From contig CAVUXE010000035.1 of NCBI GenBank assembly GCA_963745235.1, positions 192,001-256,000 of the forward strand: DNA of 64,000 bases. The letters run 5' to 3'. Position 1 is the first letter of the stretch. The number at the start of each line of letters is the position of its first letter. The translations under genes and the position numbers were made by a program. This document shows positions 23,300-39,579 of the stretch, piece by piece. The notes below the pieces were generated by a model. It worked only from the letters and a program-made list of their open reading frames with translations, made no database searches and was not told where the DNA came from. This stretch comes from an uncultured Spirochaetota bacterium. Its GTDB lineage: Bacteria > Spirochaetota > Spirochaetia > SZUA-6 > Fen-1364.

Positions 23300-25432
23300 T
23301 TAACGTTCCAACGTTGCTGACCGGCGCGGGGCCTTCAACCTTGCGCTGATTGTGGCAGCGATTTGTGAAGCGCCAAGTCCGAACCGATCCAAAAGCTGCT
23401 GGTAGGTGGCCGAATGTATGAACAGGGGAGTCCTATCCTCGCTCAGCGTATTGGTGGGGACTATCTGCCGGGTGTCTATGCTGTCCCGGCAGGTCATCAG
23501 CAAGCGGCAAAGAGCCGACCAAAGGATGCCGTTGTTCTGCTCCGCTACGACGAGCAGTCTGCCCGACGAGTAAAGCGTCATCAGCTTTTCACGATCTACA
23601 GACGGCATGTCGATCACCCCAACGCAGATCCCTTCGTCTTCGAGAATCTGTGATGCTGCCATGGCCTCATATACTCCACGTCCGCTGGAAATGATAACGG
23701 CCTGGTCTTTTGCGTTCTCCTTCAGGGCATAAGCTTTTCCGTATTCGAAATGAAAATCGTTTGGATATAAAACACAAGACGGCGAGCGCGGAATGCGCAC
23801 GTAATTCAGGCCTCTATTGCCTTCCATGACCCATCTCATCAATCCGAGCAGCATGTTAGGGCAGCTTACGTCGATGACCTTGAGATGAGCGAGCTCCCCG
23901 AAAACCAGGGCATCATCGTTGCCCATATGGGTGGCTCCATTCGTCTTGGTTTCGAAGTTTGGCGCTGTTGCCAGGAAAGTCAAGTCGATGCCGTGGCCCA
24001 TGCTGAGCCACCCCTCGTTTTTGGCGATCGTTTCCTGCCGCTCCTGATAGCCGATGGCAATCCTTCTCATCACTTTCCAATCGAAGAAAGGGCAGAAAGT
24101 GCTGACCCAAACATTGCAGCCTAAAGCTGCGAACGCTTCGCCTATGCTCATCATGTTGGCTTCCGCAATCCCGACGTTGAGCGCCCTCTCCGTGTCGACC
24201 CAGCCGACGCCGGCCTCCAGACCACTGGTAGATGAAAGGTCTGCGTCTATTGAAACCACTCGCGGGTCTCGGGCAAAAGCCTTCATCGCCTGAGTCACGA
24301 TGGTGCTCGCGCTGTATTCCTTCTTGGCATCCAGCACAGGGAGAAGCGAGGGGTCGTACGCGATCCTTTTGTCCCGAGGCGCAGCCTTTCGCGTTCGGAC
24401 CTGGGCAGTGCCAGCCCGAACTACCGGATGCCCATCATGGGTTGCAGAAAGGTCCAGGTTCATTCGTTTTGCCAAGGCCGATATCTCGAGCCGGAGCTCC
24501 TCAGATTCTGGCACTTCGCCTAAGGAAGACCAGAAGCGGACGAACCGAGCCATTCGGTCTTCTCGTCGCAGCTTCTGCGCGGCAAGCTCTTGTTCGGCCA
24601 GTGCATCGGACACTTCCACCTTATGACCGACGAAGAAGCTTGAGAAACTTCCGTACCCCTTGCTGGTCCGGCTGATGATCGCGGTAGGACGGCCGTCACG
24701 CGGTCCGAACTTGAACTTCCGGAGTGCCTCAACTATGGGTGAATACTGGTTCCCGTCCACATCAATGACTCGCCATCCGAAAGAGCCCAACCACCGATCG
24801 ATGTTCCGCATAGGGATGATCAGTTGTCGTGGATTATCCAGCTGCCCTTCGTTGTTGTCGACCAGCACGCAAAGGTTGTCCAGGCGCTTGTGCGCCGAGA
24901 ACATTACTGCCTCCCACGTCAGGCCTTCCTGCAGCTCGCCGTCCCCGACCATGCAATAGACATCAAAGCATGTGCCGCGACGGCCCGCCAGGCTGAAGCC
25001 TTCCGCAACGGAGAGACCCTGGCCGAGAGGGCCTGTCGACACATGAACACCGGGAAGAAGGGGTCCGGGGTGGCCCTTGAGGATGCTTTCGGAAGATCGA
25101 GAGTTTTTCAGCACGGATCGATCGAAGTACCCTAGATCAGCGTAGACGCTGGCCATCGAGGCTACGGCATGACCCTTGCTAAGGACAAATAGATCCTGGT
25201 CGGGGCGGGTGGGGTTGCAGATGTCAACGTCTATGAACCCGCCGTAATACAAGGCTACAAGGGGAACCACTGCCGAAAAGGCTCCCCCCGCGTGAATCCC
25301 CTTGTCCACCGCATCACGCGCCTGTTCCACCATCATGACTCTGATATCGGAATCCTTGATTTCAAGGAGGCGGATGAGAGCTGTTCGGATAACTTCCTGC
25401 CGACTGACGCCGGCACTCATGACAGTGCTCAT
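23300..25432 (-). CDS. Single-chain transketolase-family ThDP enzyme
   Basis: 'FVLSKGHA', 'STGPLGQGLS', ThDP motif 'GDGELQEG...DNN', 'GIAEANMM', 'NGATHMG'; RBS GGAGGA before ATG 25432. Confidence 0.85.
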   Translation of the reverse strand: MSTVMSAGVSRQEVIRTALIRLLEIKDSDIRVMMVEQARDAVDKGIHAGGAFSAVVPLVALYYGGFIDVDICNPTRPDQDLFVLSKGHAVASMASVYADLGYFDRSVLKNSRSSESILKGHPGPLLPGVHVSTGPLGQGLSVAEGFSLAGRRGTCFDVYCMVGDGELQEGLTWEAVMFSAHKRLDNLCVLVDNNEGQLDNPRQLIIPMRNIDRWLGSFGWRVIDVDGNQYSPIVEALRKFKFGPRDGRPTAIISRTSKGYGSFSSFFVGHKVEVSDALAEQELAAQKLRREDRMARFVRFWSSLGEVPESEELRLEISALAKRMNLDLSATHDGHPVVRAGTAQVRTRKAAPRDKRIAYDPSLLPVLDAKKEYSASTIVTQAMKAFARDPRVVSIDADLSSTSGLEAGVGWVDTERALNVGIAEANMMSIGEAFAALGCNVWVSTFCPFFDWKVMRRIAIGYQERQETIAKNEGWLSMGHGIDLTFLATAPNFETKTNGATHMGNDDALVFGELAHLKVIDVSCPNMLLGLMRWVMEGNRGLNYVRIPRSPSCVLYPNDFHFEYGKAYALKENAKDQAVIISSGRGVYEAMAASQILEDEGICVGVIDMPSVDREKLMTLYSSGRLLVVAEQNNGILWSALCRLLMTCRDSIDTRQIVPTNTLSEDRTPLFIHSATYQQLLDRFGLGASQIAATISARLKAPRRSATLER

Positions 25433-25579
25433 GCCTGTTTCCTCCAGAGCTCCCATGGATCAGAATCTTGAGTCAGTGGCAACGACATGAGAGACATGCC
25501 GAATTGACCGCTTCAAATGGCTTCGACCCATCCTCTTCATCTATGAGGGGTGTCGTCGCTGAATATTGCTCATCTCCCT

Positions 25580-27466
25580 TTAGAGCCCCAGGAAATGCTT
25601 TTCGCGTTGAACTTGCTCACACCAAGGTCCGACGTTCCACGCGCCGTAAACACCAAGGCCCGCAAGCTCATCTGGACCGGCATACACCGGAACATGCACG
25701 AGCGAAAGACCCGGGTACGCAAAGCCTTCACTGAGGGCGGCTTCAAGCGCTTGACGCGTATATCCACCAAATATGCCTTTTATCCCATCAATTGAGCGAG
25801 CCAAGGATACGTAGTCAACTGCGACCGAGTCGTCCGTGCGGAACTCTTGGCCATATTGGGCCAGCTGCAGTCCAGAAATTGCGGCCATCCTGCGATTGTC
25901 AAACAACACTATCATTCCCCTCAACTTATGCTCTACCGCATCGATGAGAATCTGCGGGCTCATCATGAAGCTACCGTCTCCGGAGAATGCAATTGGATAG
26001 TGCGGGGAGTCTGCAAACGCCGATGCGAGGATCCCGCTCACAGCGAAACCCATGTAGGACGCGCCTGTATCGGTAATTGTTTTGCCCGGGGTCTCATCCT
26101 CGACAATCTGAAAGCCATTTGCTTGAACGTCGCCGGCATCGAAGTATTTTACCGCGTCGTGTTCTTGGGCAAACGCGACAACAGTTTCAATGGCAACAGG
26201 CTGGGTAAGAGTTCTTGTATTCCATTTCGGATCGTGCAGGCCCTGGACCTGATAGCAGCGCTCGCGAAATGAATCCCACTTCTTGCGTTGCGCCGTGCAT
26301 TCCGACAACCAAGAAGAATCGCGACCCGACTTGCTGATTTTGGCTTCCCTCAGAATCTCAAGGAGAGCGGCCAGCACGGATCCCGCGTCGCCGATCAGGG
26401 GTAGGCTCTTGTTGTAATGAGTGGCGTCTTCAAGACGGGTATTAATGGCTATAAAAGCCTTTGCATTCTTCCATGCTGTTCCTGAAGAATCCCACTGACA
26501 GACGGCGCGCGCTCCGATCACTATCACAAGCTCTGCTTTTTCCATTGCCCAGTTGCCAGAAATGGATCCTTTTGCTCCTCCGACTGTCATGTTCCGAATA
26601 TTCGATCCCGGCAAGACTCCGACCACGGACGGTCCATGAACGAAGACCGCGTCTGTTCGCTCGAGGAATTCCTCGAGGAGCTTCGGATCTACGCTATGCG
26701 CGCCATTCCCCGCTTTGACGAGAATGCGATTGTACTTCGTTATCAGTTCAGTGGCTTGCCAATATGAGGATTTGTCGGCTGGGACGAGCTTCGGGGCATG
26801 CGGCGTGTGCGGCAACTCCAGCAGGTTGAACTGCGGTATGATTTGCCCCTGGACGTTCATGGGAAGCAAGAAATAACAGGGACTCGGCTGTTCCGGACTG
26901 AATACCGCATTCGCTCCCCTCCGCAAGGCGGCTGGAAGCGCTTCACCCGTGTGCAAAGAATAGGCGGTGCCCATGACTGACGTCAGCTTTAGAAAAGATA
27001 ACTGTTCATGGCGGGGGATTTGTTGCATGTTAAACCCCTCGTCGTGCGTGGTTTCATCGCCAAAAATGTAGTAGACGCCTAGCCCGTTTGAAAGGGGGAC
27101 CAGGGAACCTGCGAGAGCCTGGAGCGCTCCAGGTCCAATCGATGTGAAAACTGCTGCAGTTTCGCCGTAATCCCAACGCAGGGCAGTGGCTGCATGTGAC
27201 GCCTCCACTTCGCTTCTCACGTTAAACACCTTGACGACTCCCGCCATCTCGTATATTCGAAGCGCTTCGCCAAAATCGGTCGTGCCGTGTCCAAATACAC
27301 CGATATATTTGCTTACATGTTGCACCAGGAGTCCAAGAACAAGGGCCTCGCTAAGGGAAATATCCTGAAATTGCGATAGAGTGCCGAGCTCCAGCGCCTC
27401 TTCAACGCCGCCAGCAGCGGCCACCGCTTCCGCCCGCGCCTTGCGGGCCATGAGCATACTGTTCAT
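25580..27466 (-). CDS. IolD-like ThDP-dependent acylhydrolase (ring-cleaving)
   Basis: 'GVFGHG', 'TSIGPGA', 'GDVQANG...SYMGF', 'GDGSFMM...FDN'; alternative TTG start at 27478. Confidence 0.75.
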   Translation of the reverse strand: MNSMLMARKARAEAVAAAGGVEEALELGTLSQFQDISLSEALVLGLLVQHVSKYIGVFGHGTTDFGEALRIYEMAGVVKVFNVRSEVEASHAATALRWDYGETAAVFTSIGPGALQALAGSLVPLSNGLGVYYIFGDETTHDEGFNMQQIPRHEQLSFLKLTSVMGTAYSLHTGEALPAALRRGANAVFSPEQPSPCYFLLPMNVQGQIIPQFNLLELPHTPHAPKLVPADKSSYWQATELITKYNRILVKAGNGAHSVDPKLLEEFLERTDAVFVHGPSVVGVLPGSNIRNMTVGGAKGSISGNWAMEKAELVIVIGARAVCQWDSSGTAWKNAKAFIAINTRLEDATHYNKSLPLIGDAGSVLAALLEILREAKISKSGRDSSWLSECTAQRKKWDSFRERCYQVQGLHDPKWNTRTLTQPVAIETVVAFAQEHDAVKYFDAGDVQANGFQIVEDETPGKTITDTGASYMGFAVSGILASAFADSPHYPIAFSGDGSFMMSPQILIDAVEHKLRGMIVLFDNRRMAAISGLQLAQYGQEFRTDDSVAVDYVSLARSIDGIKGIFGGYTRQALEAALSEGFAYPGLSLVHVPVYAGPDELAGLGVYGAWNVGPWCEQVQREKHFLGL

Positions 27467-27470
27467 CTCT

Positions 27471-28121
27471 TTAGTCAAGTTTCCCCGCAGTCGACGCCAG
27501 TCGCGACTTGATTGCCATTACAAGATCCAGGCTCTCGGGAGGTGCGGCTTCGATTATTTCCATGATGCCGGGGAAGCTCAGTGAGGGGTCTACAACTTCG
27601 GCGGGAAGGCTACCGATTATTCTCGCCATTCCAGGGTGGGTGGCTTCGGTAACTCTTTTCAAACGTTCAACAGACTGTTGCTGCGATTCTTTCCTGTTAG
27701 CAGGGTAGCCGTCCCCCCGGTGACCTGAAAACAGCTCTTCAAAGATGAGCTCAAGATTCACGATGCTGCCCCATGAATAGCCTTGATTGAGTGCGAGACT
27801 AATACAGTTGCCAGCGTTGATCCGATTAAAAAGCCACGCATCGAGAGGAGTCGTCATGTGACCGCAAACAACATTGGGATATTGGAGAACAGAGTTCAGA
27901 AAACCCTGGCCAGTTCCGCAGCCGCCGATGACAAAGTCCACATACCGCAAATTCAGAAGAAGTGCACTGAGAAAGCCGGTATGGACGTATGTGAGCTCCG
28001 GGGGCTGGCCATTCCGTCTCATTCCGCAGTTGACTATCTCAAGATTTCGATCAGCGAGAGCCGCCAGTATGTCACTGTTACGGTCGGCAGAGCTCGTTTC
28101 GTTGACGACGGCAACTCTCAT
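27471..28121 (-). CDS. RpiB/LacAB-family isomerase, DhuI-like subtype
   Basis: 'VVNETSSADRN', 'ELTYVHTG', 'GCGTGQG', 'INAGNCISL..QGYSWG', 'GDGYP..RKESQ'. Confidence 0.85.
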   Translation of the reverse strand: MRVAVVNETSSADRNSDILAALADRNLEIVNCGMRRNGQPPELTYVHTGFLSALLLNLRYVDFVIGGCGTGQGFLNSVLQYPNVVCGHMTTPLDAWLFNRINAGNCISLALNQGYSWGSIVNLELIFEELFSGHRGDGYPANRKESQQQSVERLKRVTEATHPGMARIIGSLPAEVVDPSLSFPGIMEIIEAAPPESLDLVMAIKSRLASTAGKLD

Positions 28122-28165
28122 TGGCAAATCCCTCCAGAATCCCCGGCAGAAATCTGATATTGAGC

Positions 28166-28194: not shown

Positions 28195-28338
28195 TAGATA
28201 GCAGGCCAATTCCAGACGGGCGGCCTTTGGCGGAACGGATGGCGAATGGATTGCCCCGATCTCCAACAACGGCCTTGATCGGGAAGAGAAGTCTTGCTAC
28301 CATTCCCCGCGGGCGTTTGCAAAGGAGCAGCACAAGAG

Positions 28339-29148
28339 ATGCGCGCGGCCAAAAGGGCGGGGGTATCACCGAGAGACACCCACATCATTCAATCGCTGGA
28401 TAAGGGGCTGTTCGTGCTCGAGCTCGTAGAGCAGGCAACTCAACCTGTCGGCCTGAATGACCTCAAGCTCAGCCTTGGATGGGACAAGGCTACGATTCAT
28501 CGCATTTTGACAACCCTCGAACGACGCGGGTTCCTGTTGCGGAATCCTGTGACCAAGAAGTACACCCTCGGGTTGAAAGTATATGGACTGTATGACTCGC
28601 TGCTGCGGACCTTCGACATCCACGAAACGACACACGCGTTTCTGATGAAGGTAGCGGAGCACACGGGGGAGGCAACGCACCTCGCCGTCGCGGTTGGAAA
28701 AGAAATTGTGTTCATTGACCGGATTGCAAGCACCGAGGTGCTTTCCGTGAATACCCAGATTGGGGCTCGAGAACCCATGTTTTGTACTGCTCTTGGAAGA
28801 GCTTTGCTGGCCTTCGTTCCTCAAGCGGAGACTGAAAGCTTCCTGCCACGGCCGATCGTGAAATACACCAGCCATACGATAACGAGCGCCGCGGCTTTGA
28901 AGGCGGAGCTCGCGGCGGTGAGAGAAGCCGGGTTCGCAATCGAGAGCGAGGAATATGTTGACGGGATCCGCTGCGTCGCTTCTCCAATTCTCAATCACGA
29001 GCGTATGCCTATTGGCGCAGTCGGGGTTTCGGGGCCCGTGAACCGAATAACGACACAGCGGGCCGCGCGGTTCGGGTCATTTATCCGAAAGGTAGCATTC
29101 CAGATCTCCGAACTTGCGGGATGGGATGGCAGCAACGGCAAGGAATGA
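28339..29148 (+). CDS. IclR-family transcriptional regulator
   Basis: 'IQSLDKGLFVLE', HTH 'KATIHRILTTL', 'CTALGRALLAF', 'GIRCVASPI'. Confidence 0.93.
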   Translation: MRAAKRAGVSPRDTHIIQSLDKGLFVLELVEQATQPVGLNDLKLSLGWDKATIHRILTTLERRGFLLRNPVTKKYTLGLKVYGLYDSLLRTFDIHETTHAFLMKVAEHTGEATHLAVAVGKEIVFIDRIASTEVLSVNTQIGAREPMFCTALGRALLAFVPQAETESFLPRPIVKYTSHTITSAAALKAELAAVREAGFAIESEEYVDGIRCVASPILNHERMPIGAVGVSGPVNRITTQRAARFGSFIRKVAFQISELAGWDGSNGKE

Positions 29149-29494: not shown

Positions 29495-29592
29495 GATCAA
29501 CGCCACTGGGGTAAACTTTTTCGGAGGGAAGCCATGAAAGTCCTTGCAACGCCCCTGATCGTGAAAGGCCGCCGGTGACGGAGTGCAAAGAC

Positions 29593-30672
29593 GTGGATAG
29601 CGTGAGGATTGGCATCATCGGCTGCGGGCGCATCTCCGACCTTCACGCTGCGGGCTACCGCGCCGACCCGCGTGCGATCATAGCGGCGGTCTGTGATGCA
29701 GACGCGGCCAAGGCAAAGTCAAAGGCATGCGAGTGGGGGGCGGCGAAGTGGCACAGTGATTATCGCGCACTTCTCGCGGACCCGCACGTGGACGCAGTGG
29801 ATATCGTCACGCCCCAGCGCTGCCATGAGGCGATGGCCCTCGAAACCCTCGCGGCGGGCAAACATGTTTGCGTTCAGAAGCCCATGACGGTGGACATGGA
29901 CAGCGCGGACCGCATGGTGGCTGCCGCCGCGGCGGCAGGCGGAAAGATATTCAAGCTCTCCGAGAATTACGTATTCTACCCGCCCCTCGTTCTCGCAAAG
30001 CGCATGATCGATGACGGAAAAATCGGCGAACCGACGAGCATGCGGATCAAATTCATCTCCGGCTCGAGCGGCGGATGGGACGTACCCGACTCGGCCTGGG
30101 ACTGGCGAAAGGACGAGCACCGGCGGGGCTACGGAATGCAGACCTTCGACCATGGCCACCACATGTGGTCCGTGGCCTGGTACCTCATGGGGGAAATCGA
30201 ACGGGTCTTCGCGTGGATCGACTCAGTGGATGGCTTTCTCGATTGCCCCGCCGAGATCATGTGGAAGTACGCGGGGGCGCCGAAGTATGGCTCCTGCGAT
30301 TACTCGCATGGAACCGCCCTTCACATCCCATCGCGCTACTACGCGAACGACGAGTGGTTCGAGGTCACCGGAAGCGAGGGCATCCTCATGGTGATGCGCT
30401 GTACGGGAAACGTGCACGGCGGGGCGCCTGTACGCCTCTTCCGGGACGACAGGTGGACCGAGTACACCGACGTGGACTCGGACTGGGCGGCTGGGTTCCG
30501 GGGTTCGACGGCCAATTTCATCTCTGCGATCCTGGGGTCTGAGGCGCCGTCGCTCACCGCAGAGCGCGGCCGCGAAGTACTCAGGATGGACCTCGCGATC
30601 CAGGAATCCGCCCGCGCGCGGAGGGAGGTCGAGCTGGCGGGCTTTCGCGGCGGACCCGCGGCGGCCGTGTAA
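29593..30672 (+). CDS. Gfo/Idh/MocA-family oxidoreductase
   Basis: 'IGIIGCGRI', 'GKHVCVQKPM', 'FDHGHH'. Confidence 0.9.
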   Translation: MDSVRIGIIGCGRISDLHAAGYRADPRAIIAAVCDADAAKAKSKACEWGAAKWHSDYRALLADPHVDAVDIVTPQRCHEAMALETLAAGKHVCVQKPMTVDMDSADRMVAAAAAAGGKIFKLSENYVFYPPLVLAKRMIDDGKIGEPTSMRIKFISGSSGGWDVPDSAWDWRKDEHRRGYGMQTFDHGHHMWSVAWYLMGEIERVFAWIDSVDGFLDCPAEIMWKYAGAPKYGSCDYSHGTALHIPSRYYANDEWFEVTGSEGILMVMRCTGNVHGGAPVRLFRDDRWTEYTDVDSDWAAGFRGSTANFISAILGSEAPSLTAERGREVLRMDLAIQESARARREVELAGFRGGPAAAV

Positions 30673-30781: not shown

Positions 30782-31042
30782 GGGGCCGCAAGGATCTGGA
30801 CCAAAGGCCGGGCAAGCACTGCGAAAGCGGGCGTCCAACGGGGTGTACCCCCGATATTTCGAAGGCCATCGTTCTGGGGAAATCGAAGGAGCTTGTTTTC
30901 TGGTCTTGGTGGAGAAATGGAGAGAAAACCAGGGGATGGCAAAGGTTTAAGCGGAAAGGAGGTGACGAGTACCCGTTGAATGCGCAGTGTTACTGCGCGA
31001 CAGGAAAACAGGGTCAGGGAGCATTGGTCAAGGAGGCTACTA

Positions 31043-32461
31043 ATGAAAGCGAGGAAACTAATCCCGCTTCTCAGTCTTTTCGTTCTCTTGGTCTGCGCCG
31101 GAGGCCAGATATGGGCGGGAGGCCAGAATGAAAACGCCCCGGGAGCGGCCGCGAAGCCGGTCACGATCAACGTCGCAACCAGCCTCGGCTGGATCACGAC
31201 GGACGGTTTGATGCCCTTCTTGAAGGAGTACCTTGCCAAACAAGGCATCAACGTCGTGGCGGTTCCTGGGCAGGGCGTCGCGTTGCGTGACAAGCAAATG
31301 CTTGCGGCAAGCTCCGGGGACGCGACATACGATGTCTACCTCGCGTGGGACGCCCTCATGCCTCTCCTGCAGAAATACGGCGAACCCCTGGACACGTACC
31401 TCCAGAGCGCTGGCGTGGACGTATCGGGCTTTGAAGCCAAGTTCTATCCGAACGTCGTGGCCAACGCCTCAGCGGACGGCAAATTGTACTGGATTCCCAT
31501 TCACATCAACGCTCAAATCGGCTACGCCCGAAGAGATCTTTTCATGGATCCCAATGAGCAAGCGGCATTCAAGGCCAAGTACGGATACGACCTGCCGCAG
31601 CCGGACAGCACCGGGGTCCTCAACTTCCCGACCAAGAAGGTATTTGTTGATGTGGCTCAGTTCTTCACCCGTGCGGGCAGCGACGGCCAGACTAACCTCT
31701 GGGGTTACGTGATGGCCGGCAAGTGGGACCAGGGCAACACCGTCTTCGAAGAGGAAATGTTCCGAGCGGGACTCGGCTATTTCGACCAGAAGGGGCACTC
31801 GGACTGGGGTCCGGCGGAACCCCAGAATCAGCCGATCGTGAAGGATATTGCAACCTTCGATTACAACTTGATCAACACGTGGAAGGTATGCTCGCCGGGT
31901 GTCCTGGGAATGGAGCTCACCGAGATCGGGCAACTGTTCGCAACGGGCAAGGCGGCCATGTCGTTCACCTGGAACGTCGACAACTGGCCTCTGTACAAGG
32001 GAACCGATTTCGAAAAGAAATATGGGCTGCCGCTCTCCTGGATTCCCTCGTTCATGGATCGATCCCCGAACGACAAGGGGCTGATGTCCGTCTGGGCATG
32101 GGAATTGAACAAGAACAGCAAGAACAAGGCCGCAGCTGTGAAGTTCCTCCTTGCCGCTGCCGATGAGAACTTGCGGATCCAGGCTACCCAGCAGGCGAAA
32201 CTGCCCGTCGGAAACGGAATGCTCGACGTTAGCCAGTGGCTCGTAAGCCACAGCGTGGTCCCGGGCGCCTACATACCGGCGGTTCAGACCATTGGGACGT
32301 TCTGGCCGACGAGTCCTGCTTTCCCGCAGACCGATCCGGCGCGTGACGTGCTTCGAAAGGCTCACGAGCAGCTTCTCAGTGGCCAGATCACTCCCGACCA
32401 GTTTGTGAAACAGACCGGCGACGGAGTGGAGGCGCTGATGCACCAGGCAGGCTACTTCTAA
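31043..32461 (+). CDS. Carbohydrate ABC transporter substrate-binding protein
   Basis: RBS AGGAGG, spirochaete-type signal 'IWAGGQNE', 'DGKLYWIP', 'YARRDLF', 'FATGKAAM'. Confidence 0.9.
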   Translation: MKARKLIPLLSLFVLLVCAGGQIWAGGQNENAPGAAAKPVTINVATSLGWITTDGLMPFLKEYLAKQGINVVAVPGQGVALRDKQMLAASSGDATYDVYLAWDALMPLLQKYGEPLDTYLQSAGVDVSGFEAKFYPNVVANASADGKLYWIPIHINAQIGYARRDLFMDPNEQAAFKAKYGYDLPQPDSTGVLNFPTKKVFVDVAQFFTRAGSDGQTNLWGYVMAGKWDQGNTVFEEEMFRAGLGYFDQKGHSDWGPAEPQNQPIVKDIATFDYNLINTWKVCSPGVLGMELTEIGQLFATGKAAMSFTWNVDNWPLYKGTDFEKKYGLPLSWIPSFMDRSPNDKGLMSVWAWELNKNSKNKAAAVKFLLAAADENLRIQATQQAKLPVGNGMLDVSQWLVSHSVVPGAYIPAVQTIGTFWPTSPAFPQTDPARDVLRKAHEQLLSGQITPDQFVKQTGDGVEALMHQAGYF

Positions 32462-32530: not shown

Positions 32531-33406
32531 GTGATACTGCAGCGGCAGCGCAGAACGTACTGGCTCCTGACATTTCCCGCAATTTTCATAACGCTGGTCG
32601 GGTTGGTATGGCCGATTTCGCGAGGCGTTCAGATCAGCTTCACGAATATGAACCTGCTGGCCGACACGAATCGCTATGTGGGGCTGGCCAACTACGGGAA
32701 GGTCCTCAGCGATCCTGATTTTTATTTTTCACTCTTGCGGAACGTTGAATACGTCGTCGTCGTCGTTTTCTTCAATTTCGTCATCGGCTTCGCCATGGCG
32801 CTCGTGTGCAACGGGAAATTTGCCGGCAATCGAGTTCTCCGCGCGGTCATCATCCTTCCCATGGTGGTCATACCGACCGCCGCAGCTATTTTGTGGCGAT
32901 TCATGTACAACTACGACATTGGGGTCATCAACAACGTCGCCAACAGTTTGCACCTCCTCAGAGTCGACTGGTTGGGAGATCCCAAGATGGCGCTGATCTC
33001 GGTGCTTATCACCGATATTTGGGCGTGGACACCGTGGATGTTTTTAATCCTGCTTGCCGGACTCGAGGGGCTTCCGGCCGAGACCATCGAAGCGGCGAGA
33101 ATCGACGGCGCTTCGGGTCTTCGCCTCATCTGGATGATTATGCTTCCCATGATGAGGCCGATCTATCAGGTCGCGATATCGCTGAAAGCAATTGACACCT
33201 TCCGTACGTTCGACTATGTCTGGGTCATGACCGGCGGCGGGCCAGGGTCCTCCAGCGACATCCTGAGCACGTACATCTACAAGTCGGCTTTCAAGAACCT
33301 CGCGTACGGATACAGCGCAGCAATCAGCCTCGTCGTTCTTGTCTTCACTGTCGCCCTCTCGTTTTCTGTGCTGCGTGGATTGATCGTCAAGCAGGAAAAC
33401 CTATGA
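32531..33406 (+). CDS. Carbohydrate ABC transporter permease (MalF-like)
   Basis: 'VGLANY', EAA loop 'EAARIDGAS', 'MTGGGP'. Confidence 0.93.
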   Translation: MILQRQRRTYWLLTFPAIFITLVGLVWPISRGVQISFTNMNLLADTNRYVGLANYGKVLSDPDFYFSLLRNVEYVVVVVFFNFVIGFAMALVCNGKFAGNRVLRAVIILPMVVIPTAAAILWRFMYNYDIGVINNVANSLHLLRVDWLGDPKMALISVLITDIWAWTPWMFLILLAGLEGLPAETIEAARIDGASGLRLIWMIMLPMMRPIYQVAISLKAIDTFRTFDYVWVMTGGGPGSSSDILSTYIYKSAFKNLAYGYSAAISLVVLVFTVALSFSVLRGLIVKQENL

Positions 33407-34215
33407 ACAAATACTTGAGATCATTCCTTATTCTTCTCATCGTGGTATGGACGGTCGGTCCGCTGTACGAGTTGATTGTGATGTCAACCGCGGCGTCGGG
33501 GAGTTTCAGCACGCTGCTACCCACGAAGATCACACTCAGCTACTACGGGGAAATCCTCTTCGGAGCTCGTTTCGGAGCCCAATCAATTTGGCCATTCATG
33601 GGCCACAGCCTCATTGTGTGCACCGTGGCGTCGCTTGCCGTGATCCTCTTCAGCCTGCCGTGCGCGTACGGTTTTTCCCGGCTCAAGTCCAAGGCGAGCC
33701 AAGGGGTGTACCTTGGCTATTTCGTTCTGCGAATGCTGCCTTCGATCGCGCTGCTCGTCCCGTGGTATTTCATCCTCAGATCGCTGCGCTTGATTGACAC
33801 ATATGGCGGCCTATCGCTCATCTACCTGCTTTTCCAGCTTCCCGTCGGTATCTGGCTCATGAAGGGATTCTTCGACACCATTCCTGTCGAGCTTGAGGAA
33901 TCCGCGTGGATCGAGGGTGCAAGCGTCTTGACGGCATTTCGAGAGATCATCATTCCCCTCGCCGGAAATGGAATCTCTGTGACGGGAGTTTTCGTCTTCC
34001 TGTACAGCTACATTGAGCTCATGTACGCATCCGTTCTAACCAGGCAAAAAATAACACTACCACCGTACCTCGCAGGATTTGTCAGCCAATATGAGCCTCA
34101 CTGGCAACTGACGCTCGCGGCGTCTCTTATCAGCACCGTCCCGATGATCCTGCTGTTCATGTTCGCGCAAAGGTATATGACGCGGGGCATCACCGGAGGC
34201 GCCCTGAAATACTGA
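33403..34215 (+). CDS. Carbohydrate ABC transporter permease (MalG-like)
   Basis: 'FFDTIPVELEESAWIEGAS', 'GITGGALK'. Confidence 0.93.
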   Translation: MNKYLRSFLILLIVVWTVGPLYELIVMSTAASGSFSTLLPTKITLSYYGEILFGARFGAQSIWPFMGHSLIVCTVASLAVILFSLPCAYGFSRLKSKASQGVYLGYFVLRMLPSIALLVPWYFILRSLRLIDTYGGLSLIYLLFQLPVGIWLMKGFFDTIPVELEESAWIEGASVLTAFREIIIPLAGNGISVTGVFVFLYSYIELMYASVLTRQKITLPPYLAGFVSQYEPHWQLTLAASLISTVPMILLFMFAQRYMTRGITGGALKY

Positions 34216-34232
34216 AGATAAGAGGAAAAGAA

Positions 34233-34490
34233 ATGGGCAAGGTCAGAATAGGAATGATCGGAGCGGGCGTCCATGCCACGAACATGCTGTACCCGAGTTG
34301 CGAGCATATCGCGGCCCCTGTGGAGAGGGTCGCCGTCTGCGACCTGATCGAGCAGAAGGCGAAGAGCGCGATCGATTTCAAGAAAATGCTGAGAGGTTCC
34401 GGGGTGGTCCTGGAGAAGATGGATGAGCCGACCTCGGCTTTGAGCGACACGGAGATACGGCGTCTCTTGAATACCGTGTCCGCGCTGTGA
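34233..34490 (+). pseudogene. Truncated chimeric remnant: Gfo/Idh/MocA N-terminus joined to an unrelated C-terminus
   Basis: Rossmann start 'VRIGMIGAG...VAVCDL' with RBS, but only 85 aa and no 'EKP' motif. Confidence 0.7.
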
Positions 34491-34552
34491 AGGCCCCGGG
34501 ATTGCCCGGTCGTCGACACGTTGACAAGTGCGGAAAGAAGGAGGGATCGGGA

Positions 34553-35014
34553 ATGCGTCTGCTCGCGGACCATACTGCCGAACTTGGAGATGGTTTCGTT
34601 CGCTCCGTCGCCGCGAAGGCGCGGGACGCGAAACTGACAAGGGGAGACCTGGAAGATTGCATTCGGCTGTTTTGCATGGTGTGCAATCACGTTGACGAGC
34701 TCCAGTTCGAGCTCAAGGATTTCACGCATTCCTTCCAATTGCAGATCGGCGAGGAGCGCTTCGCCGTGACGTTCAACAAGGGCGCGTGCGCCGTGTACGC
34801 GGGCACCATCGATTCCCCCGACATCACGATCCAGATGGGTCTCGTGACTGCGCGGGACCTGGTGATGGGGAAGGTCAATTCCGGCGCGGCCCACATGGAC
34901 GGTGACATCACGTACAAGGGAACCAAGAATGGTGCCGTCAAGCTGCAGTCAGTGTTCGAACTCTTCCTGGACGAGCTCGACGAACGTGCGCGATCCGAAC
35001 GGGGAGAATCATGA
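34553..35014 (+). CDS. SCP2 sterol/lipid-binding domain protein
   Basis: 'PDITIQM..TARDLVMGKVNSGAAHMDGDITYKG'. Confidence 0.8.
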   Translation: MRLLADHTAELGDGFVRSVAAKARDAKLTRGDLEDCIRLFCMVCNHVDELQFELKDFTHSFQLQIGEERFAVTFNKGACAVYAGTIDSPDITIQMGLVTARDLVMGKVNSGAAHMDGDITYKGTKNGAVKLQSVFELFLDELDERARSERGES

Positions 35015-37284
35015 AGCAGTTGAAACTCGGGGTCGTAGGCGGCGGCAGCGCCTTCACCTTTCACGCGAGCGGTGTGAAGGATTCGAAGCTCCTGCGCTTC
35101 ACGGCGATTTTCGACTCGAACATCGACAACGCCAGGAAGATCGCCCGGCGATTCAAGGAAGGCCATCTCGAGGTCTACGAGACCCTTGATGCGATGCTCG
35201 AATCGGACATCGACGCGGTTCTCGTGATGGTGCCCCATGCATACCACGAGAGGATCGTCGTGCGGTGCGCGGAGAAAGGCAAGCACGTGCTGTGCGAGAA
35301 GCCCATGGCCACCACGGTGGAAGCGTGCAGGAACATGATCGAGGCCGCGGAGAGGAACAAGGTCAAGCTCATGATCGCGGAGAATCACCGGTTTCTCCCG
35401 GCGCACACCTATATCCATGACGCCGTCCAGAAGGGTCTGATTGGCGACGTCCTCGTGGTCAGGGCATACGAGGGCGTCAACGAGATCCCCGGGTTGAGCA
35501 TGAGCGGCTTCTGGAAGGGGGATCCGATCAAGGCGGGCGGCGGCGCGCTCATGGACATGGGCGCGCACAAGTTTGCGGCCCTCGAGTACATCCTCGGAAG
35601 CAGGTGCACGAAGATTACCGCGGTGCTCGCGAAGCAGGCGATCAACCTGCCGGAAAAGGCGGAAGACAACGCGTTCACGATCGTGCATTTCGACAACGGC
35701 GCGGTCGGCGAGATCGCGGTGAGCTTCACGCAGATGACGCCCCCTTTCAACAGCCTCGAGATCTTCGGAACGTCGGGGAGCATCTTCGAGAACCATGCAT
35801 GGGAGAAGCCGGTTCGGATCTACTCCTTTTCGAAGGACATGGGCGAGCATCAGCAGGTCATGTACGAGCCCGACATCGAGCACAAGCCCTTCCCCGGCTA
35901 CTATCCCATTTCGGTGCGACACGAGGACGAGTACTTCGCGAAATGCGTCCTCGAAGATACACAACCCGAGTTCACTCCCATCGATTCGATGAGCGCCATC
36001 GAGTGCATACTGGCGGGCTATCTCTCGGCCATTGAACACAGGCCTGTTGAACGGAGAGAGATCGTGGAGCTCGCGGACAAGGGCCTCACATTCGGCATAC
36101 TGGAACGGCTTGCCGAGCAGATACCAATCAACCCGAAGCTGCCCGAGGTGAAGAAGATGAAACCCGTCGGATATGACCGCAGCAGGAGCGCCGGGATCAT
36201 GGAAAAATATGACCTGGACCTCCTCATCGCGAGCTCTCCCGAGAATGTCTATTACCTGAGCGGATTGCCCGTCCTCCACAGCGCGCCCAATCCCATACTG
36301 GAGGCCTTGAGCAACCAGTACCCCAACATTGCGATGATCCGGCGCGAGGGGGAAGGCACGGTAATCAACTGGGACGTGTTCAAGAGCGTCCCCGCGCTGT
36401 GCTGGGTCGCGGACAGCGTCGGGATCAGCAGCCCGAAGGACGTCCAGAGCGCCCTCCTTCTGAAGATCAAGAAGTGGGGGCTCATCGACAAGCGCGTCGG
36501 CGTGGAATCCACCGCTCCGAAGTTTCTCCTCGATGTCCTCGCACAAAACAAGGCGAACGCGAAATTGGTCGAAGCGGATGCCGCTTTCCAGGACATGCGG
36601 ATCGTCAAGACCGACCAGGAGATCGAGTACATCACGAAAGCAACGGAAATCACGGAGAAGGCGATCATGCGCTGCGTGAAGGCCCTGAGGGAAGGCATGA
36701 CCGACAACGACCTCCTGAACCTCGGCAAGAGGGCGATGCTCGAGGAAGGAGCCGACGGGTGGAACCACATGACCCTGTCCATCGGCGGCTCCGATCCGGA
36801 AGCGCCCGGTATCGGCACAGTCGTGCGAAAGGGAGACATTGTCCGCCTGGACTTCGGCGCTGTGTGCAAAGGCTACGTCGCTGACGTGAACGCGCACGTC
36901 GTCGTAGGGAAGGTTCCGGAGAAGGCCGCGGCTCTCATTGAAGGCCTGCTCGAGTTCCAGGGCTACTTCGAGGCCCGCATCACGCCGGGCGTCTCGATGA
37001 GGCAGCTCGGCGAGGAAGCCGTGCACTGGTACAAGGGGAAATATCCCGAGGGGATGGCATTCTGCATCGGCCACAGCATCGGCCTGGAGTGCGAGGACCT
37101 GCACCTGTTTGGCGCGATGGGTTCGCAGGACCGCGACTTCGAGAAGAACATGGTTTTCGAGATCGAGGCGTGGGAAAGCTTCGAAGGCTTCCTCATCGGC
37201 GTCGAGGATTGCTATGTCGTGACCGACTCAGGCTGCCGCAAACTGACTCGCCTCGACAAGCGAATCATGACAGTGAAGGAGTGA
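35011..37284 (+). CDS. Gfo/Idh/MocA oxidoreductase fused to a creatinase-N/M24 (pita-bread) hydrolase
   Basis: N-terminal 'GKHVLCEKPMA', 'GGGALMDMGAH'; C-terminal 'ENVYYLSG', 'RIVKTDQEI', 'LDFGA', 'YVAD', 'GHSIGL', 'FEIE', 'GVED'. Confidence 0.85.
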   Translation: MKQLKLGVVGGGSAFTFHASGVKDSKLLRFTAIFDSNIDNARKIARRFKEGHLEVYETLDAMLESDIDAVLVMVPHAYHERIVVRCAEKGKHVLCEKPMATTVEACRNMIEAAERNKVKLMIAENHRFLPAHTYIHDAVQKGLIGDVLVVRAYEGVNEIPGLSMSGFWKGDPIKAGGGALMDMGAHKFAALEYILGSRCTKITAVLAKQAINLPEKAEDNAFTIVHFDNGAVGEIAVSFTQMTPPFNSLEIFGTSGSIFENHAWEKPVRIYSFSKDMGEHQQVMYEPDIEHKPFPGYYPISVRHEDEYFAKCVLEDTQPEFTPIDSMSAIECILAGYLSAIEHRPVERREIVELADKGLTFGILERLAEQIPINPKLPEVKKMKPVGYDRSRSAGIMEKYDLDLLIASSPENVYYLSGLPVLHSAPNPILEALSNQYPNIAMIRREGEGTVINWDVFKSVPALCWVADSVGISSPKDVQSALLLKIKKWGLIDKRVGVESTAPKFLLDVLAQNKANAKLVEADAAFQDMRIVKTDQEIEYITKATEITEKAIMRCVKALREGMTDNDLLNLGKRAMLEEGADGWNHMTLSIGGSDPEAPGIGTVVRKGDIVRLDFGAVCKGYVADVNAHVVVGKVPEKAAALIEGLLEFQGYFEARITPGVSMRQLGEEAVHWYKGKYPEGMAFCIGHSIGLECEDLHLFGAMGSQDRDFEKNMVFEIEAWESFEGFLIGVEDCYVVTDSGCRKLTRLDKRIMTVKE

Positions 37285-37288
37285 GCAA

Positions 37289-38078
37289 ATGAAACCATTG
37301 ATCATCATAGCCACGCCGAATATCTGCTGGCTCACGCCAAGCGTGCCGTACCCCCGGACAGCGACGGAAATCGCGCAGGAAGCAAAGCTGTGCCGTGAGA
37401 ACGGGGCGTCGGTTCTCCATGCTCATGGCGAAGGGCAGTGGGTCGGGATGATGGCGGAGGTCCGCAAGCGGAGCGATATCCTGATCCAATGCGGCATGTC
37501 GAGCATCCCTCTGCGGGACCGGATGGACGTCATGAATCAGAAGGCAGACATGATATCCATCATACTCAATCACCACGACGAGGCGTTTGCCGAGGTGGAT
37601 TGCAACATGCTGCATACGAAGCCGGAGCTCGAAGAATATGCAGCCGCTTGCCGTACCTACGGCGTCAAGCCGGAATTTCGAGGTCTGGCATTCGGGCTCC
37701 ATCTGGAACTTGAACCGCCTGATCGAAAAGAGCCTGCTGGATCCGCCGTATGTGACCACGATGTTCTTCGGATGGCCTGGCGGCACGTGGTCCCCTCCCA
37801 CTGTGGAGGAGTATCTTTATAGAAGGAAACAGATGCCGGAGAACTGTGCAGTTGCCGTCAGCATCATGGACGCCAGGCAGATGGACATTCTGGTCGCGGC
37901 GATAATGAACGGAGATAACGTCAGGGTTGGCACGGAGGATTATCCCTACAGCCGCCATGGCGCTCTTTCTACGACGCATGATCTGGTGAAGGAAATTGCA
38001 GATATCTCGCAGCTGCTGGGAAGGCAAATTGCAACGCCCATTGAAGCTCGTGAAATTCTCGGAACCAGGGGGCGATGA
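37289..38078 (+). CDS. BKACE/DUF849 beta-keto acid cleavage enzyme (frameshift near 37676)
   Basis: 'GASVLHAH', 'GVKPEFEVW', 'NVRVGTED', 'GRQIATPIEAREILG'. Confidence 0.85.
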
Positions 38079-38851
38079 GGATGGTCGACAAAAAGGTGGC
38101 AGTCATTACCGGCGCGGCCAGCGGCATAGGAAAGGCCACGGCGTTGAAATTCGCGAAAGAGAACTATGCGGTTGCTCTCTTCGACAAAAGCGGCGCGATA
38201 GTGGAAGTTGGCCAGTCGCTTCGCGAAAACGGATCCGAGTGCCTCGATTTCTGTGGAGACGTTGCCCGCGCAACGGACGTAGAAAGGTTCATCGACCAGG
38301 TCGCAGGGAAGTTCGGCAGGATTGACGTGCTCAATTGTAACGCGGGCATCGTGGTTGTAAAACCCCTGGAGGATACCTCCTTCGATGAGTTCGTCATGGT
38401 ATCCAATGTGAACATCGGAGGAACGTTCCTTTTCTGCAAACATGTACTGCCAATCATGAAGAGCCAGCGGCGCGGGGCGATCGTGAATCTCGGCTCAGTT
38501 TCCGGGCACGTCGGGCAGACCGAGCATGCCATTTACGGAGCGACGAAAGGCGCGGTGATCGCGTTTACCCGCGCGGTTGCCTGGGAAGTTGCGGATTACA
38601 ATATCCGGGTGAACTCCGTAAGTCCCGGCTCTGTTGACACCCCGATGCTTCGTTCGGACATACAGCTCGAATCGGCGCGAACCGGACTGGCGTTCGGGAA
38701 GGTAAAGAAGAACAGGGAGGCGGAACAGGCGTTCAAGCGCTGGGCGGAGCCGGAAGAGATCGCCGAGGCGATCTACTTTTTGGGCAGTGACGCGGCCTCG
38801 TTTATTACAGGCACCGACTTGCTGGTGGATTGCGGCTGGGTGGCGAAATAA
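38075..38851 (+). CDS. Short-chain dehydrogenase/reductase
   Basis: 'TGAASGIG', 'YGATKG', 'IRVNSVSPG'. Confidence 0.93.
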   Translation: MRMVDKKVAVITGAASGIGKATALKFAKENYAVALFDKSGAIVEVGQSLRENGSECLDFCGDVARATDVERFIDQVAGKFGRIDVLNCNAGIVVVKPLEDTSFDEFVMVSNVNIGGTFLFCKHVLPIMKSQRRGAIVNLGSVSGHVGQTEHAIYGATKGAVIAFTRAVAWEVADYNIRVNSVSPGSVDTPMLRSDIQLESARTGLAFGKVKKNREAEQAFKRWAEPEEIAEAIYFLGSDAASFITGTDLLVDCGWVAK

Positions 38852-39579
38852 TGCCGGGTGCAGTCATCGACTACGAAATAGAGAAGAAGAAGAGTACGAC
38901 GGGAATAATCGTTCAGAAGCTCCTGGAACTGATCCGCGTTCGCAGTCTGAAGCCGGGGGATAAGCTTCCAACCGAGAGGGAGCTTTCGAAACTGATGAAA
39001 GTAAGCAGGCCGTCCTTGAGGGAGGCGCTGAAATCACTGGAAATGATGAGTATCATCAGAATTCGACAGGGCTCGGGCGCTTTCGTGAACAAACTGGAGC
39101 CCGAAAGCGTCGTCGAACATCTCGACATAGTTTTCACCCTGGATGAGACGCTCTACCGCGATCTCTACAAGGCTCGAAGGGTTCTGGAGTCGGCGATTGC
39201 GGGGATGGCCGCCGAACTGATCACTGACGAGGAGCTCGTCGAAATCGAATCGAACATCACAAAAGCCGCGCGAGCCGTTAGAAAGACCCACGAGTTCTTC
39301 GAGCTCGATCTTCAGCTCCATAGTTTGATCCTGAAAGCGTCGAGAAACCGGATCCTTCCCGTATTCATCCAATCTATCAACAAGCTCAACTTGATGATGC
39401 GCGAAAAGACGAACAGGTATCTCAAAATCAGGCAGTCATCCATCCGAGATCATCAGAACATCCTGGAAACCTTGCGGGAGAGGAATCCGGAAAAGGCCGC
39501 GCGGGCAATGGAAGAACACCTGTTCAACGTCGAGAGGGGATATTATGGCCTCGTCAAGGAAGGAGCCAGGAAAAAGTGA
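38851..39579 (+). CDS. GntR/FadR-family regulator
   Basis: 'KLPTERELS...VSRPSLREALKSL', FCD 'DLQLH', 'MEEHL'. Confidence 0.93.
   Translation: MPGAVIDYEIEKKKSTTGIIVQKLLELIRVRSLKPGDKLPTERELSKLMKVSRPSLREALKSLEMMSIIRIRQGSGAFVNKLEPESVVEHLDIVFTLDETLYRDLYKARRVLESAIAGMAAELITDEELVEIESNITKAARAVRKTHEFFELDLQLHSLILKASRNRILPVFIQSINKLNLMMREKTNRYLKIRQSSIRDHQNILETLRERNPEKAARAMEEHLFNVERGYYGLVKEGARKK

Follow-up and report, generated by a model that had tools for sequence, protein, structure and literature searches.

A three-gene operon of an uncultured Spirochaetota bacterium centred on a predicted sister family of IolD

The 64,000-nucleotide stretch analysed here (the window; contig CAVUXE010000035.1, positions 192,001–256,000 of the forward strand, from assembly GCA_963745235.1 of an uncultured Spirochaetota, 86% complete) carries an operon of three genes, which encode a DhuI-type aldose–ketose isomerase, a thiamine diphosphate (ThDP) enzyme and a transketolase-like enzyme. 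Analysis indicates that this operon is probably a new variant of carbohydrate-type catabolism organised around an uncharacterised ThDP family. The isomerase–ThDP pair forms the conserved core of the system, the transketolase belongs to a group of several interchangeable back ends, and the complete trio represents a minority design. An earlier sequence-only reading had proposed that an IolD-like hydrolase opens a cyclitol-derived ring, that the isomerase replaces IolB, and that the transketolase then removes a C2 unit. This mechanism stays plausible in outline and serves as the leading model, held tentatively, whereas its inositol-like substrate finds no support.

The three genes lie exactly where that reading had placed them, all on the minus strand, co-directional and divergent from an IclR-family regulator gene (Table 1; coordinates are window positions). 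The ThDP and isomerase genes overlap at their ends by 8 nt, while a 123-nt gap, in which a scan finds no terminator-like site, separates the ThDP gene from the transketolase gene. Translation of the isomerase probably starts at the ATG at 28121, because the alignment to its solved homologues begins at residue 3. The 166-nt spacer between the isomerase and IclR genes holds a sigma-70-like site (TTGACT-17-TATCAT) at a fitting position, but such sites number five in the region against 3.4 ± 1.9 in shuffled sequences, a count not above chance. As had also been noted, IolB-, IolC-, IolE- and IolJ-type genes are absent among the scanned open reading frames (ORFs) of the window, and whole-genome searches for IolE, IolB and IolC return no match inside it. 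The trio is a real, regulated operon, predicted to be under IclR control.

The ThDP enzyme is best described as belonging to a separate uncharacterised family, predicted to be sister to IolD, that is neither IolD nor acetolactate synthase (ALS). Its best NCBIfam model is IolD (TIGR04377), at 144.5 bits against an equivalog cut-off of 715, followed by the ALS model TIGR00118, at 97 bits against a cut-off of 538. The genome's own IolD scores 914 bits and shares 25% identity with the ThDP enzyme. Nor does the window contain any of iolE, iolG and iolB, the usual companions of iolD. Orthology to IolD is ruled out by these scores and this identity, so that the former label of an IolD-like hydrolase holds for the nearest curated family and for common motifs, and fails as a statement of identity. 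ALS identity is likewise ruled out, by the score and by a tree that separates the ALS paralogues. Specifically, FastTree, applied to the family together with the genome's five paralogues (its own IolD, three ALS and one benzoylformate decarboxylase (BFDC)-like protein), sets IolD plus the ThDP family apart from the three ALS plus the BFDC-like protein with a Shimodaira–Hasegawa (SH)-like support of 99, on long branches of the kind for which the tool warns about such joins. In the alignment, the motifs FGHG, SIGPGA, QQ and W.VG are common to the ThDP enzyme and the genome's IolD and absent from the ALS and BFDC-like paralogues. The sequence-only reading had taken clustering with acetolactate synthases as a sign against itself, and no such clustering is seen. 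Thirty family members all have His64 of the FGHG motif. The cofactor glutamate and the GDG...DN motif likewise show no variation among 30 sequences, and because of this the enzyme should be active.

Structural comparison adds little resolution to this placement. The PDB sequence search finds no solved structure closer than 63 bits, and a fold search with the AlphaFold model (predicted local distance difference test, pLDDT, 86) returns acetohydroxyacid synthase (AHAS), glyoxylate carboligase, pyruvate oxidase, 2-hydroxyacyl-CoA lyase (HACL) and cyclohexane-1,2-dione hydrolase (CDH), all at template modelling (TM) scores of 0.72–0.79 and at most 20% identity. CDH (Azoarcus, 4d5g; TM 0.77) belongs to the same superfamily and cleaves a C–C bond in a cyclic 1,2-diketone; however, it is not among the sequence matches of the ThDP enzyme at E ≤1e-10, nor among the top PDB matches of the real IolD. 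Neither the Xsc nor the glyoxylate carboligase model appears among the 25 best NCBIfam matches of the ThDP enzyme, and an identity of either kind is rejected on this basis. ESM Atlas yields only generic "thiamine pyrophosphate-binding" clusters. The structure 8RPH was rejected as a lead, being JanthE, an unrelated carboligase. The family itself is large, with more than 120 clusters at ≥56% identity among the matches listed, 52 genome loci and at least 559 confirmed metagenome stretches, 80 of which were kept for mapping. It extends over Spirochaetota, Pseudomonadota, Verrucomicrobiota, gut Firmicutes and others, and its cultured carriers include strains of Oceanispirochaeta, Vineibacter and Mesorhizobium. 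The literature search, which did not extend to supplementary files, found no description of the gene set, of the pathway or of the family's reaction.

On sequence criteria, the isomerase is assigned as a true member of the DhuI family, as its earlier designation implied. Its domain is PF02502, it scores 180.2 bits with the NCBIfam model PRK09273 (cut-off 137), and its PDB matches at E ~1e-37 are 2ppw, 3ono and 4u8e, the last being DhuI itself (gbs1892, Streptococcus agalactiae), matched at E = 9.3e-38 over residues 3–184. Alignment to the solved homologues also reveals the CGTG cysteine motif. Although the isomerase family is the same as in the DhuI–DhuD step of uronate and glycosaminoglycan degradation, its surroundings differ: the window operon has no DhuD/KduD-type reductase, KdgK or KdgA, and no short-chain dehydrogenase/reductase (SDR) lies in the operon, the nearest being 10 kb off. 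Moreover, the genome gives no match to the unsaturated-uronate sources GH88/105, PL22 or PF07940 (Hepar_II_III), the last of which we take to cover the PL17 oligoalginate lyases; at 86% completeness of the assembly, this is not proof of absence. The use of DhuI as a stand-in for KduI is backed by PMC12838403, which describes KduI/IolB and DhuI as non-homologous isofunctional isomerases. In the same source, dhuD–dhuI clusters are reported only in Bacillota and Actinomycetota.

The transketolase is of a rare, divergent type. It scores 127.7 bits with TIGR00232, below the cut-off of 682, and its best solved match is a human-type transketolase at 159 bits; the genome's housekeeping transketolase (contig C59) is canonical, at 775 bits. 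Aligned with the canonical enzyme, the window transketolase keeps the motifs GHA, GHPG and GDG...N, the glutamate of GIAE and the histidine of ATH. The phosphate pocket, for which we take Arg358, His461 and Arg520 of the Escherichia coli transketolase as the binding positions, is substantially altered: Arg358 is replaced by Ser and His461 by Ala, and Arg520 is kept, so that two of the three basic residues are lost with the catalytic residues retained. The same Ser and Ala changes occur in the genome's paralogue and, of eight orthologues, in the seven that can be aligned at these positions (Asn stands in for Ser in one, and L013 is unread at the last two positions), and the split transketolases of other loci keep both arginines. 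In the Ser385 column, the human-type and split transketolases all show Asp; the corresponding position of the window transketolase is not reliably mappable. The altered pocket would fit unphosphorylated substrates and does not prove them.

Neighbourhood analysis locates the conserved part of the system. Neighbours were mapped in 133 loci including the window, by clustering, Pfam and tblastn with family queries. The counts given here refer to genes within 8 kb of the ThDP gene in the 68 loci where 3 kb or more of sequence is available on each side of that gene; they are tblastn-based, ORF-based counts being too low where genes are masked by antisense ORFs, and they are not independent events, many of the loci being close kin. 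IclR regulators are the most frequent neighbours (51/68), followed by GFO-type dehydrogenases (42/68) and RpiB-fold isomerases (38/68, of which 36 are DhuI-type and two are short RpiB proteins). Transketolases occur in 18 loci (8 fused, 10 split), small cupins in 15, aldehyde dehydrogenases (ALDH) and molybdenum dehydrogenases in 14 each, and ADP-forming acyl-CoA synthetases in 13; BKACE, zinc-dependent alcohol dehydrogenases (Zn-ADH) and TctC are found in 12 each, and ILVD-family dehydratases in 10. The isomerase is present in 16 of the 18 transketolase loci, in all 12 BKACE loci and in none of the 10 ILVD loci. The complete trio is found in 16/68 loci; elsewhere, one of three replacements stands where the transketolase would be: BKACE with an acyl-CoA synthetase, a dehydratase with an aldehyde dehydrogenase, or a molybdenum dehydrogenase. 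In the tree of ThDP sequences, loci with a transketolase and loci with BKACE are intermingled, and most of those with ILVD or a molybdenum dehydrogenase group in a single large clade. The intermingling makes transketolase and BKACE look like exchangeable downstream modules.

The small cupin of the BKACE operons was considered as KdgF and rejected, as it gives no KdgF match and only weak ones (E ~1e-4) to cupin-type sugar isomerases. A gut-type design (L096–L100 and L104, from gut and fermentation metagenomes) combines IclR, the ThDP enzyme, Zn-ADH, a molybdenum dehydrogenase, a DASS anion symporter, a DhuI-type isomerase and an SDR, and lies directly downstream of a rhamnose isomerase and an FGGY kinase.

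The phylum sample, consisting of 151 Spirochaetota genomes, confirms the isomerase–ThDP linkage. The ThDP enzyme is encoded in 13 of these genomes and the DhuI-type isomerase in 11, all of them among the 13 ThDP carriers; in nine of the ten carriers other than the source genome, the isomerase adjoins the ThDP gene. The window-type transketolase is restricted to three genomes, namely the source genome, which has it twice, and two others. The expectation that the trio is conserved together is accordingly borne out for the tightly linked isomerase–ThDP pair but not for the transketolase, which also occurs without the other two.

The chemistry proposed below is inferred at every step; the gene identities, layout, linkage and residue changes on which it builds are observed. 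In the leading model, which we favour tentatively, the operon serves the IclR-controlled catabolism of an imported, unphosphorylated, carbohydrate-like compound by IolD-type C–C cleavage, isomerisation and C2 removal. The neighbouring GFO dehydrogenase would first form a carbonyl, next to which the ThDP enzyme would break a C–C bond, generating an aldehyde that retains vicinal hydroxyls and an acid tail, as in the IolD product. The DhuI-type isomerase would convert the aldehyde end to a CH2OH–CO– ketol, from which the atypical transketolase, with its largely dismantled phosphate pocket, would take off the C2 ketol unit. The carboxylate of the ketol acid would then sit where the phosphate of xylulose 5-phosphate sits. 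The shortened aldehyde acid would finally pass to aldehyde oxidation or to the adjoining BKACE/SDR module.

Four constraints lead to this product type. The ThDP product should be an aldehyde, because ALDH (14/68), molybdenum dehydrogenase (14/68) or GFO dehydrogenase (42/68) is nearby, and it should carry a 2-hydroxyl, because an aldose–ketose isomerase follows. After isomerisation it should be a transketolase donor, and in the BKACE designs it should be convertible to a –CO–CH2–COO– acid; by its presence in the transketolase and BKACE loci counted above, the isomerase is associated with enzymes that remove C2 units. An aldehyde bearing vicinal hydroxyls together with a –CH2–COO– tail would agree with all four constraints and is an IolD-type product, and the BKACE partner fits such a tail. 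Together with the kinship to IolD, this is why the earlier outline is kept as the leading model. The scheme resembles the myo-inositol pathway (IolG, IolE, IolD, IolB, IolC, IolJ and IolA; Bacillus subtilis type) in having a GFO dehydrogenase beside a ThDP enzyme nearest to IolD, an aldose–ketose isomerase as the next enzyme, and a proposed aldehyde product with a deoxy-acid tail. It differs in that the operon lacks IolE, IolB, IolC and IolJ, the ThDP enzyme is only 25% identical to IolD, the isomerase has an RpiB rather than a cupin fold, a transketolase takes the place of kinase plus aldolase, and a true iol cluster lies elsewhere in the source genome. The dione that IolE makes in the standard inositol pathway is not the substrate of this scheme, and a cyclitol is not required.

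Several observations weigh against this model. At 25% identity, the function of IolD would not be expected to carry over, and the fold search discriminates none of AHAS, glyoxylate carboligase, pyruvate oxidase, HACL and CDH as a predicted counterpart. The Ser385 position of the phosphate pocket is unmapped. Transketolase accompanies the ThDP gene in only 18/68 loci. In addition, two genomes that lack both the isomerase and the ThDP enzyme carry a window-type transketolase (L171, G120:C32; L172, G127:C22): one copy lies by a Zn-ADH, a small cupin, a CUT2 importer and 2-keto-3-deoxy-galactonate kinase and aldolase-like genes, the other by a three-subunit molybdenum dehydrogenase. The source genome also holds a second isomerase–transketolase pair (54% and 58% identity, respectively) without a ThDP enzyme, and none of the 133 mapped loci contains a cyclitol-specific gene. 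Finally, family members at 51–57% identity lie beside carboxylate transporters (TctC in 12/68 loci, plus DASS), and tight ThDP–ALDH–ILVD operons exist within the family; both arrangements suit a keto-acid decarboxylase better.

Such a decarboxylase is a serious rival, although we consider it unlikely. The ThDP enzyme would act on 2-keto-3-deoxy sugar acids, such as 2-keto-3-deoxygluconate (KDG) or the DhuI product 2,5-diketo-3-deoxygluconate, and the resulting 2-deoxy aldehyde would be oxidised to a 2-deoxy acid by the GFO, aldehyde or molybdenum dehydrogenase. Cleavage of this acid would fall to the transketolase if it has a ketol end, or else to BKACE once a ketol shift or a dehydrogenation has taken place, along the lines of the oxidative 2-deoxyribose/2-deoxyribonate pathway, which reportedly also uses a molybdenum dehydrogenase. 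ILVD-family dehydratases yield 2-keto-3-deoxy acids, and the ThDP–ALDH–ILVD operons (ILVD in 10/68 loci, ALDH in 14/68) and the TctC/TctA and DASS importers adjoining the ThDP enzyme match this scheme. Moreover, the one activity characterised in the isomerase family has a 2-keto-3-deoxy uronate as its substrate, the gut-type loci contain an isomerase–SDR pair resembling DhuI plus DhuD, and molybdenum dehydrogenase, SDR and BKACE recur beside the ThDP enzyme, a BKACE–SDR module lying 9–10 kb from the trio in the window and in L006 and L007. However, the nearest curated family is the C–C hydrolase IolD, with which the enzyme has FGHG in common, a motif that the BFDC-like paralogue lacks; the isomerase accompanies ILVD in 0/10 loci; the genome, at the completeness given, shows no unsaturated-uronate source (GH88/105, PL22 and PF07940 unmatched); and the small cupin encoded in the BKACE operons does not resemble KdgF.

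The second isomerase–transketolase pair brings in a further alternative. It lies on contig C54 (124000–143999; L086:1694–12868), with a DeoR regulator, a FucI-like isomerase, a CUT1 ABC importer, a PfkB kinase, a class II aldolase and a Zn-ADH; as a set, these genes recall a mix of the sulfo-EMP2 and sulfo-TK pathways. In the sulfo-TK pathway (SqvD, SqwGH, SqwI and SqwF; Clostridium sp. MSTE9), a sulfonated sugar that carries no phosphate is shortened by SqwI, a PF02502 isomerase, together with a transketolase, and PMC9594981 and PMC12890257 place this pathway in Spirochaetes as well. By analogy, the window isomerase and transketolase could form a self-contained module that shortens an unphosphorylated sugar in two-carbon steps, in the manner of SqwI and SqwGH, with the ThDP enzyme handling a small end product (glycolaldehyde, glyoxylate, tartronate semialdehyde or sulfoacetaldehyde) through a carboligase or lyase reaction; we regard this as quite unlikely. 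The C54 pair without a ThDP enzyme agrees with it, as do the PF02502 membership of SqwI and the spirochaetal occurrence of the pathway. The pairing of a PF02502 isomerase with a transketolase is at the same time a precedent for the leading model, and one sulfo-TK variant described in these sources uses an ADP-forming CoA ligase. In addition, TauE, TauD or sulfatase genes adjoin the ThDP gene in a few loci, and glyoxylate carboligase and HACL come out level with the best matches of the fold search.

On the other side, the DhuI-type isomerase occurs in the phylum sample only with the ThDP enzyme, mostly adjacent to it, and not with the window-type transketolase, and the Xsc and glyoxylate carboligase models fall outside the 25 best matches. 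As regards the sulfo-TK pathway itself, SqwGH is split and close to the pentose-phosphate transketolase, whereas the window transketolase is fused and divergent, and the window operon contains an additional ALS-superfamily ThDP enzyme. The window ORF scans found no sulfoquinovose (SQ) isomerase (SqvD/YihS), sulfoquinovosidase or sulfonate exporter. Sulfonate-related neighbours are rare, at about 5 of the 52 genome loci examined by Pfam. In a few related loci, the sulfur-related and glycosidase neighbours of the ThDP gene comprise a TauE-type exporter (L013 and L015, and L114 by clustering with those), a sulfatase (L023 and L027), TauD with a luciferase-like monooxygenase and Ldh_2 (L029), and GH31 (L032); they are too few to build on.

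Elsewhere in the source genome, contig C37 carries a canonical iol cluster at ~151.8–166 kb (L068, L069) with two IolG, IolD (914 bits), IolE (418 bits), IolA, a CUT2 transporter and LacI, together with a weak IolB-like gene (111 bits, cut-off 205). No IolC above cut-off occurs anywhere in the genome, and no IolJ-type aldolase is seen among the ORFs scanned at this cluster, the rest of the genome not having been searched for IolJ. A 365-aa transaldolase-like gene adjoins IolA, and in this cluster the ordinary inositol pathway may end with a transaldolase and without a kinase; a literature search found no description of a transaldolase-ended inositol cluster. Canonical IolD is present in 8/151 Spirochaetota genomes, only two of which overlap the ThDP carriers. 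Among the 12 other carrier genomes, IolE is above cut-off in one and without any match in seven, so the ThDP family is not dependent on the IolE product; if it does perform IolD-like chemistry, its substrate must arise without the dehydratase. With no cyclitol-specific gene accompanying the family, IolE above cut-off in so few carriers and the genome's own iolG/D/E cluster elsewhere, the cyclitol or inositol-like substrate put forward earlier is not upheld. The other partner sets (sugar-acid dehydratase, carboxylate transporters and BKACE) are at least as suggestive of sugar acids as of cyclitols.

Two inositol-based schemes can be set against these data. In the literal form of the earlier proposal, an IolD isozyme hydrolyses the IolE-made trihydroxycyclohexane-1,2-dione, and the isomerase and transketolase replace IolB, IolC and IolJ. 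From established chemistry, 2-deoxy-5-keto-gluconate would be shaped like xylulose 5-phosphate, with a carboxylate for the phosphate ester and the D-threo configuration that transketolases prefer, and the canonical iol cluster, with its weak IolB-like gene, is accompanied by no IolC above cut-off and by no IolJ-type aldolase in the range scanned. However, the genuine IolD already stands beside IolE and IolG in a cluster with its own candidate bypass, the transaldolase-like gene; canonical IolD is missing from 11 of the 13 ThDP-carrying Spirochaetota, and IolE from 11 of the 12 carriers other than the source genome. The window transporter is moreover of the CUT1 type, and the known inositol importers are, to our knowledge, of the CUT2 type. 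This literal scheme is very unlikely. An improbable variant would have the ThDP family catalyse a phosphoketolase- or Xsc-like reaction on a GFO-made inosose, giving a 5-deoxyuronate in one step by ring C–C cleavage, β-hydroxyl elimination and acyl-ThDP hydrolysis, with IolE and IolD functions merged; the isomerase would then form 2-deoxy-5-keto-gluconate, and a carboxylate-directed transketolase would take over its C2 unit, leaving malate semialdehyde. If true, this would constitute a cyclitol pathway without kinase, aldolase or dehydratase and with interchangeable transketolase and BKACE back ends.

The ThDP family is central to at least four operon designs, and knowledge of its reaction would annotate hundreds of operons. 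If the back end of the leading model does act on an unphosphorylated keto acid, the sulfo-TK logic would have its first counterpart for carboxylates, and biocatalysis a new transketolase type. With three soluble enzymes, a binding protein and a regulator, the system lends itself to direct tests in vitro.

Table 1. Positions of the operon, its regulator and the adjoining genes in the window.
Feature	Position	Strand	Domains or basis
Divergent full-length (fused) transketolase-like enzyme, 718 aa	23300–25456	minus	Transketolase N, pyr and C domains
ThDP enzyme, predicted sister family of IolD, 632 aa	25580–27478	minus	TPP_enzyme N, M and C domains
DhuI-type (RpiB-fold) aldose–ketose isomerase	27471–28127 (ORF, 218 aa); 27471–28121 (from ATG, 216 aa)	minus	
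Promoter-like site 5' of the isomerase gene	28194–28166	minus	TTGACT-17-TATCAT; 10/12 consensus match only
IclR-family regulator, divergent	28294–29148	plus	HTH_IclR + IclR_C
GFO/IDH/MocA NAD(P) dehydrogenase	29575–30672	plus	Pfam
CUT1-type ABC importer, binding protein	30980–32461	plus	SBP_bac_1
CUT1-type ABC importer, permeases	32531–33406; 33403–34215	plus	two BPD_transp_1
SCP2	34487–35014	plus	Pfam
GFO–creatinase/M24 (prolidase) fusion, 757 aa	35011–37284	plus	Pfam
BKACE, frameshifted	37289–38078	plus	Pfam
SDR	38075–38851	plus	Pfam
GntR	38830–39579	plus	Pfam
NAD epimerase	39576–40523	plus	Pfam

Beyond the IclR gene, the plus strand carries the dehydrogenase and importer genes listed in Table 1. 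The best solved relatives of the GFO dehydrogenase include scyllo-inositol/L-glucose dehydrogenase (93 bits). The sole solved relative of the importer's binding protein is a distant trehalose/maltose-binding protein (E = 5e-14), and the binding protein was set aside as a substrate clue for this reason. Just 3' of the second permease, at 34230–34490, lies a short, apparently truncated GFO-like Rossmann fragment.

The module at 34487–40523 also lies beside the ThDP operon in L006 and L007, at 72–83% identity (SCP2 51–62%); the GFO–creatinase/M24 fusion is kept there at ~80% identity. The BKACE gene of the window is frameshifted near 37677–37679, residues 19–149 and 149–281 of the L006 orthologue matching in two frames at 79% identity, and it is either a pseudogene or an assembly error. 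In the oxidative 2-deoxyribose/2-deoxyribonate pathway of Pseudomonas simiae and others, BKACE and an SDR act on a 2-deoxy-3-keto acid, according to bioRxiv 10.1101/205583 (also PMC6365646). Both partners recur around the ThDP family; in contrast, the pathway has no ThDP enzyme, isomerase or transketolase, and an intact BKACE is missing from the window.

Outside the catabolic modules, the window consists of housekeeping genes. The GC content is 0.54–0.60 over the catabolic island at 22000–50000 and 0.61–0.65 in the housekeeping flanks, and the island may have been acquired horizontally.

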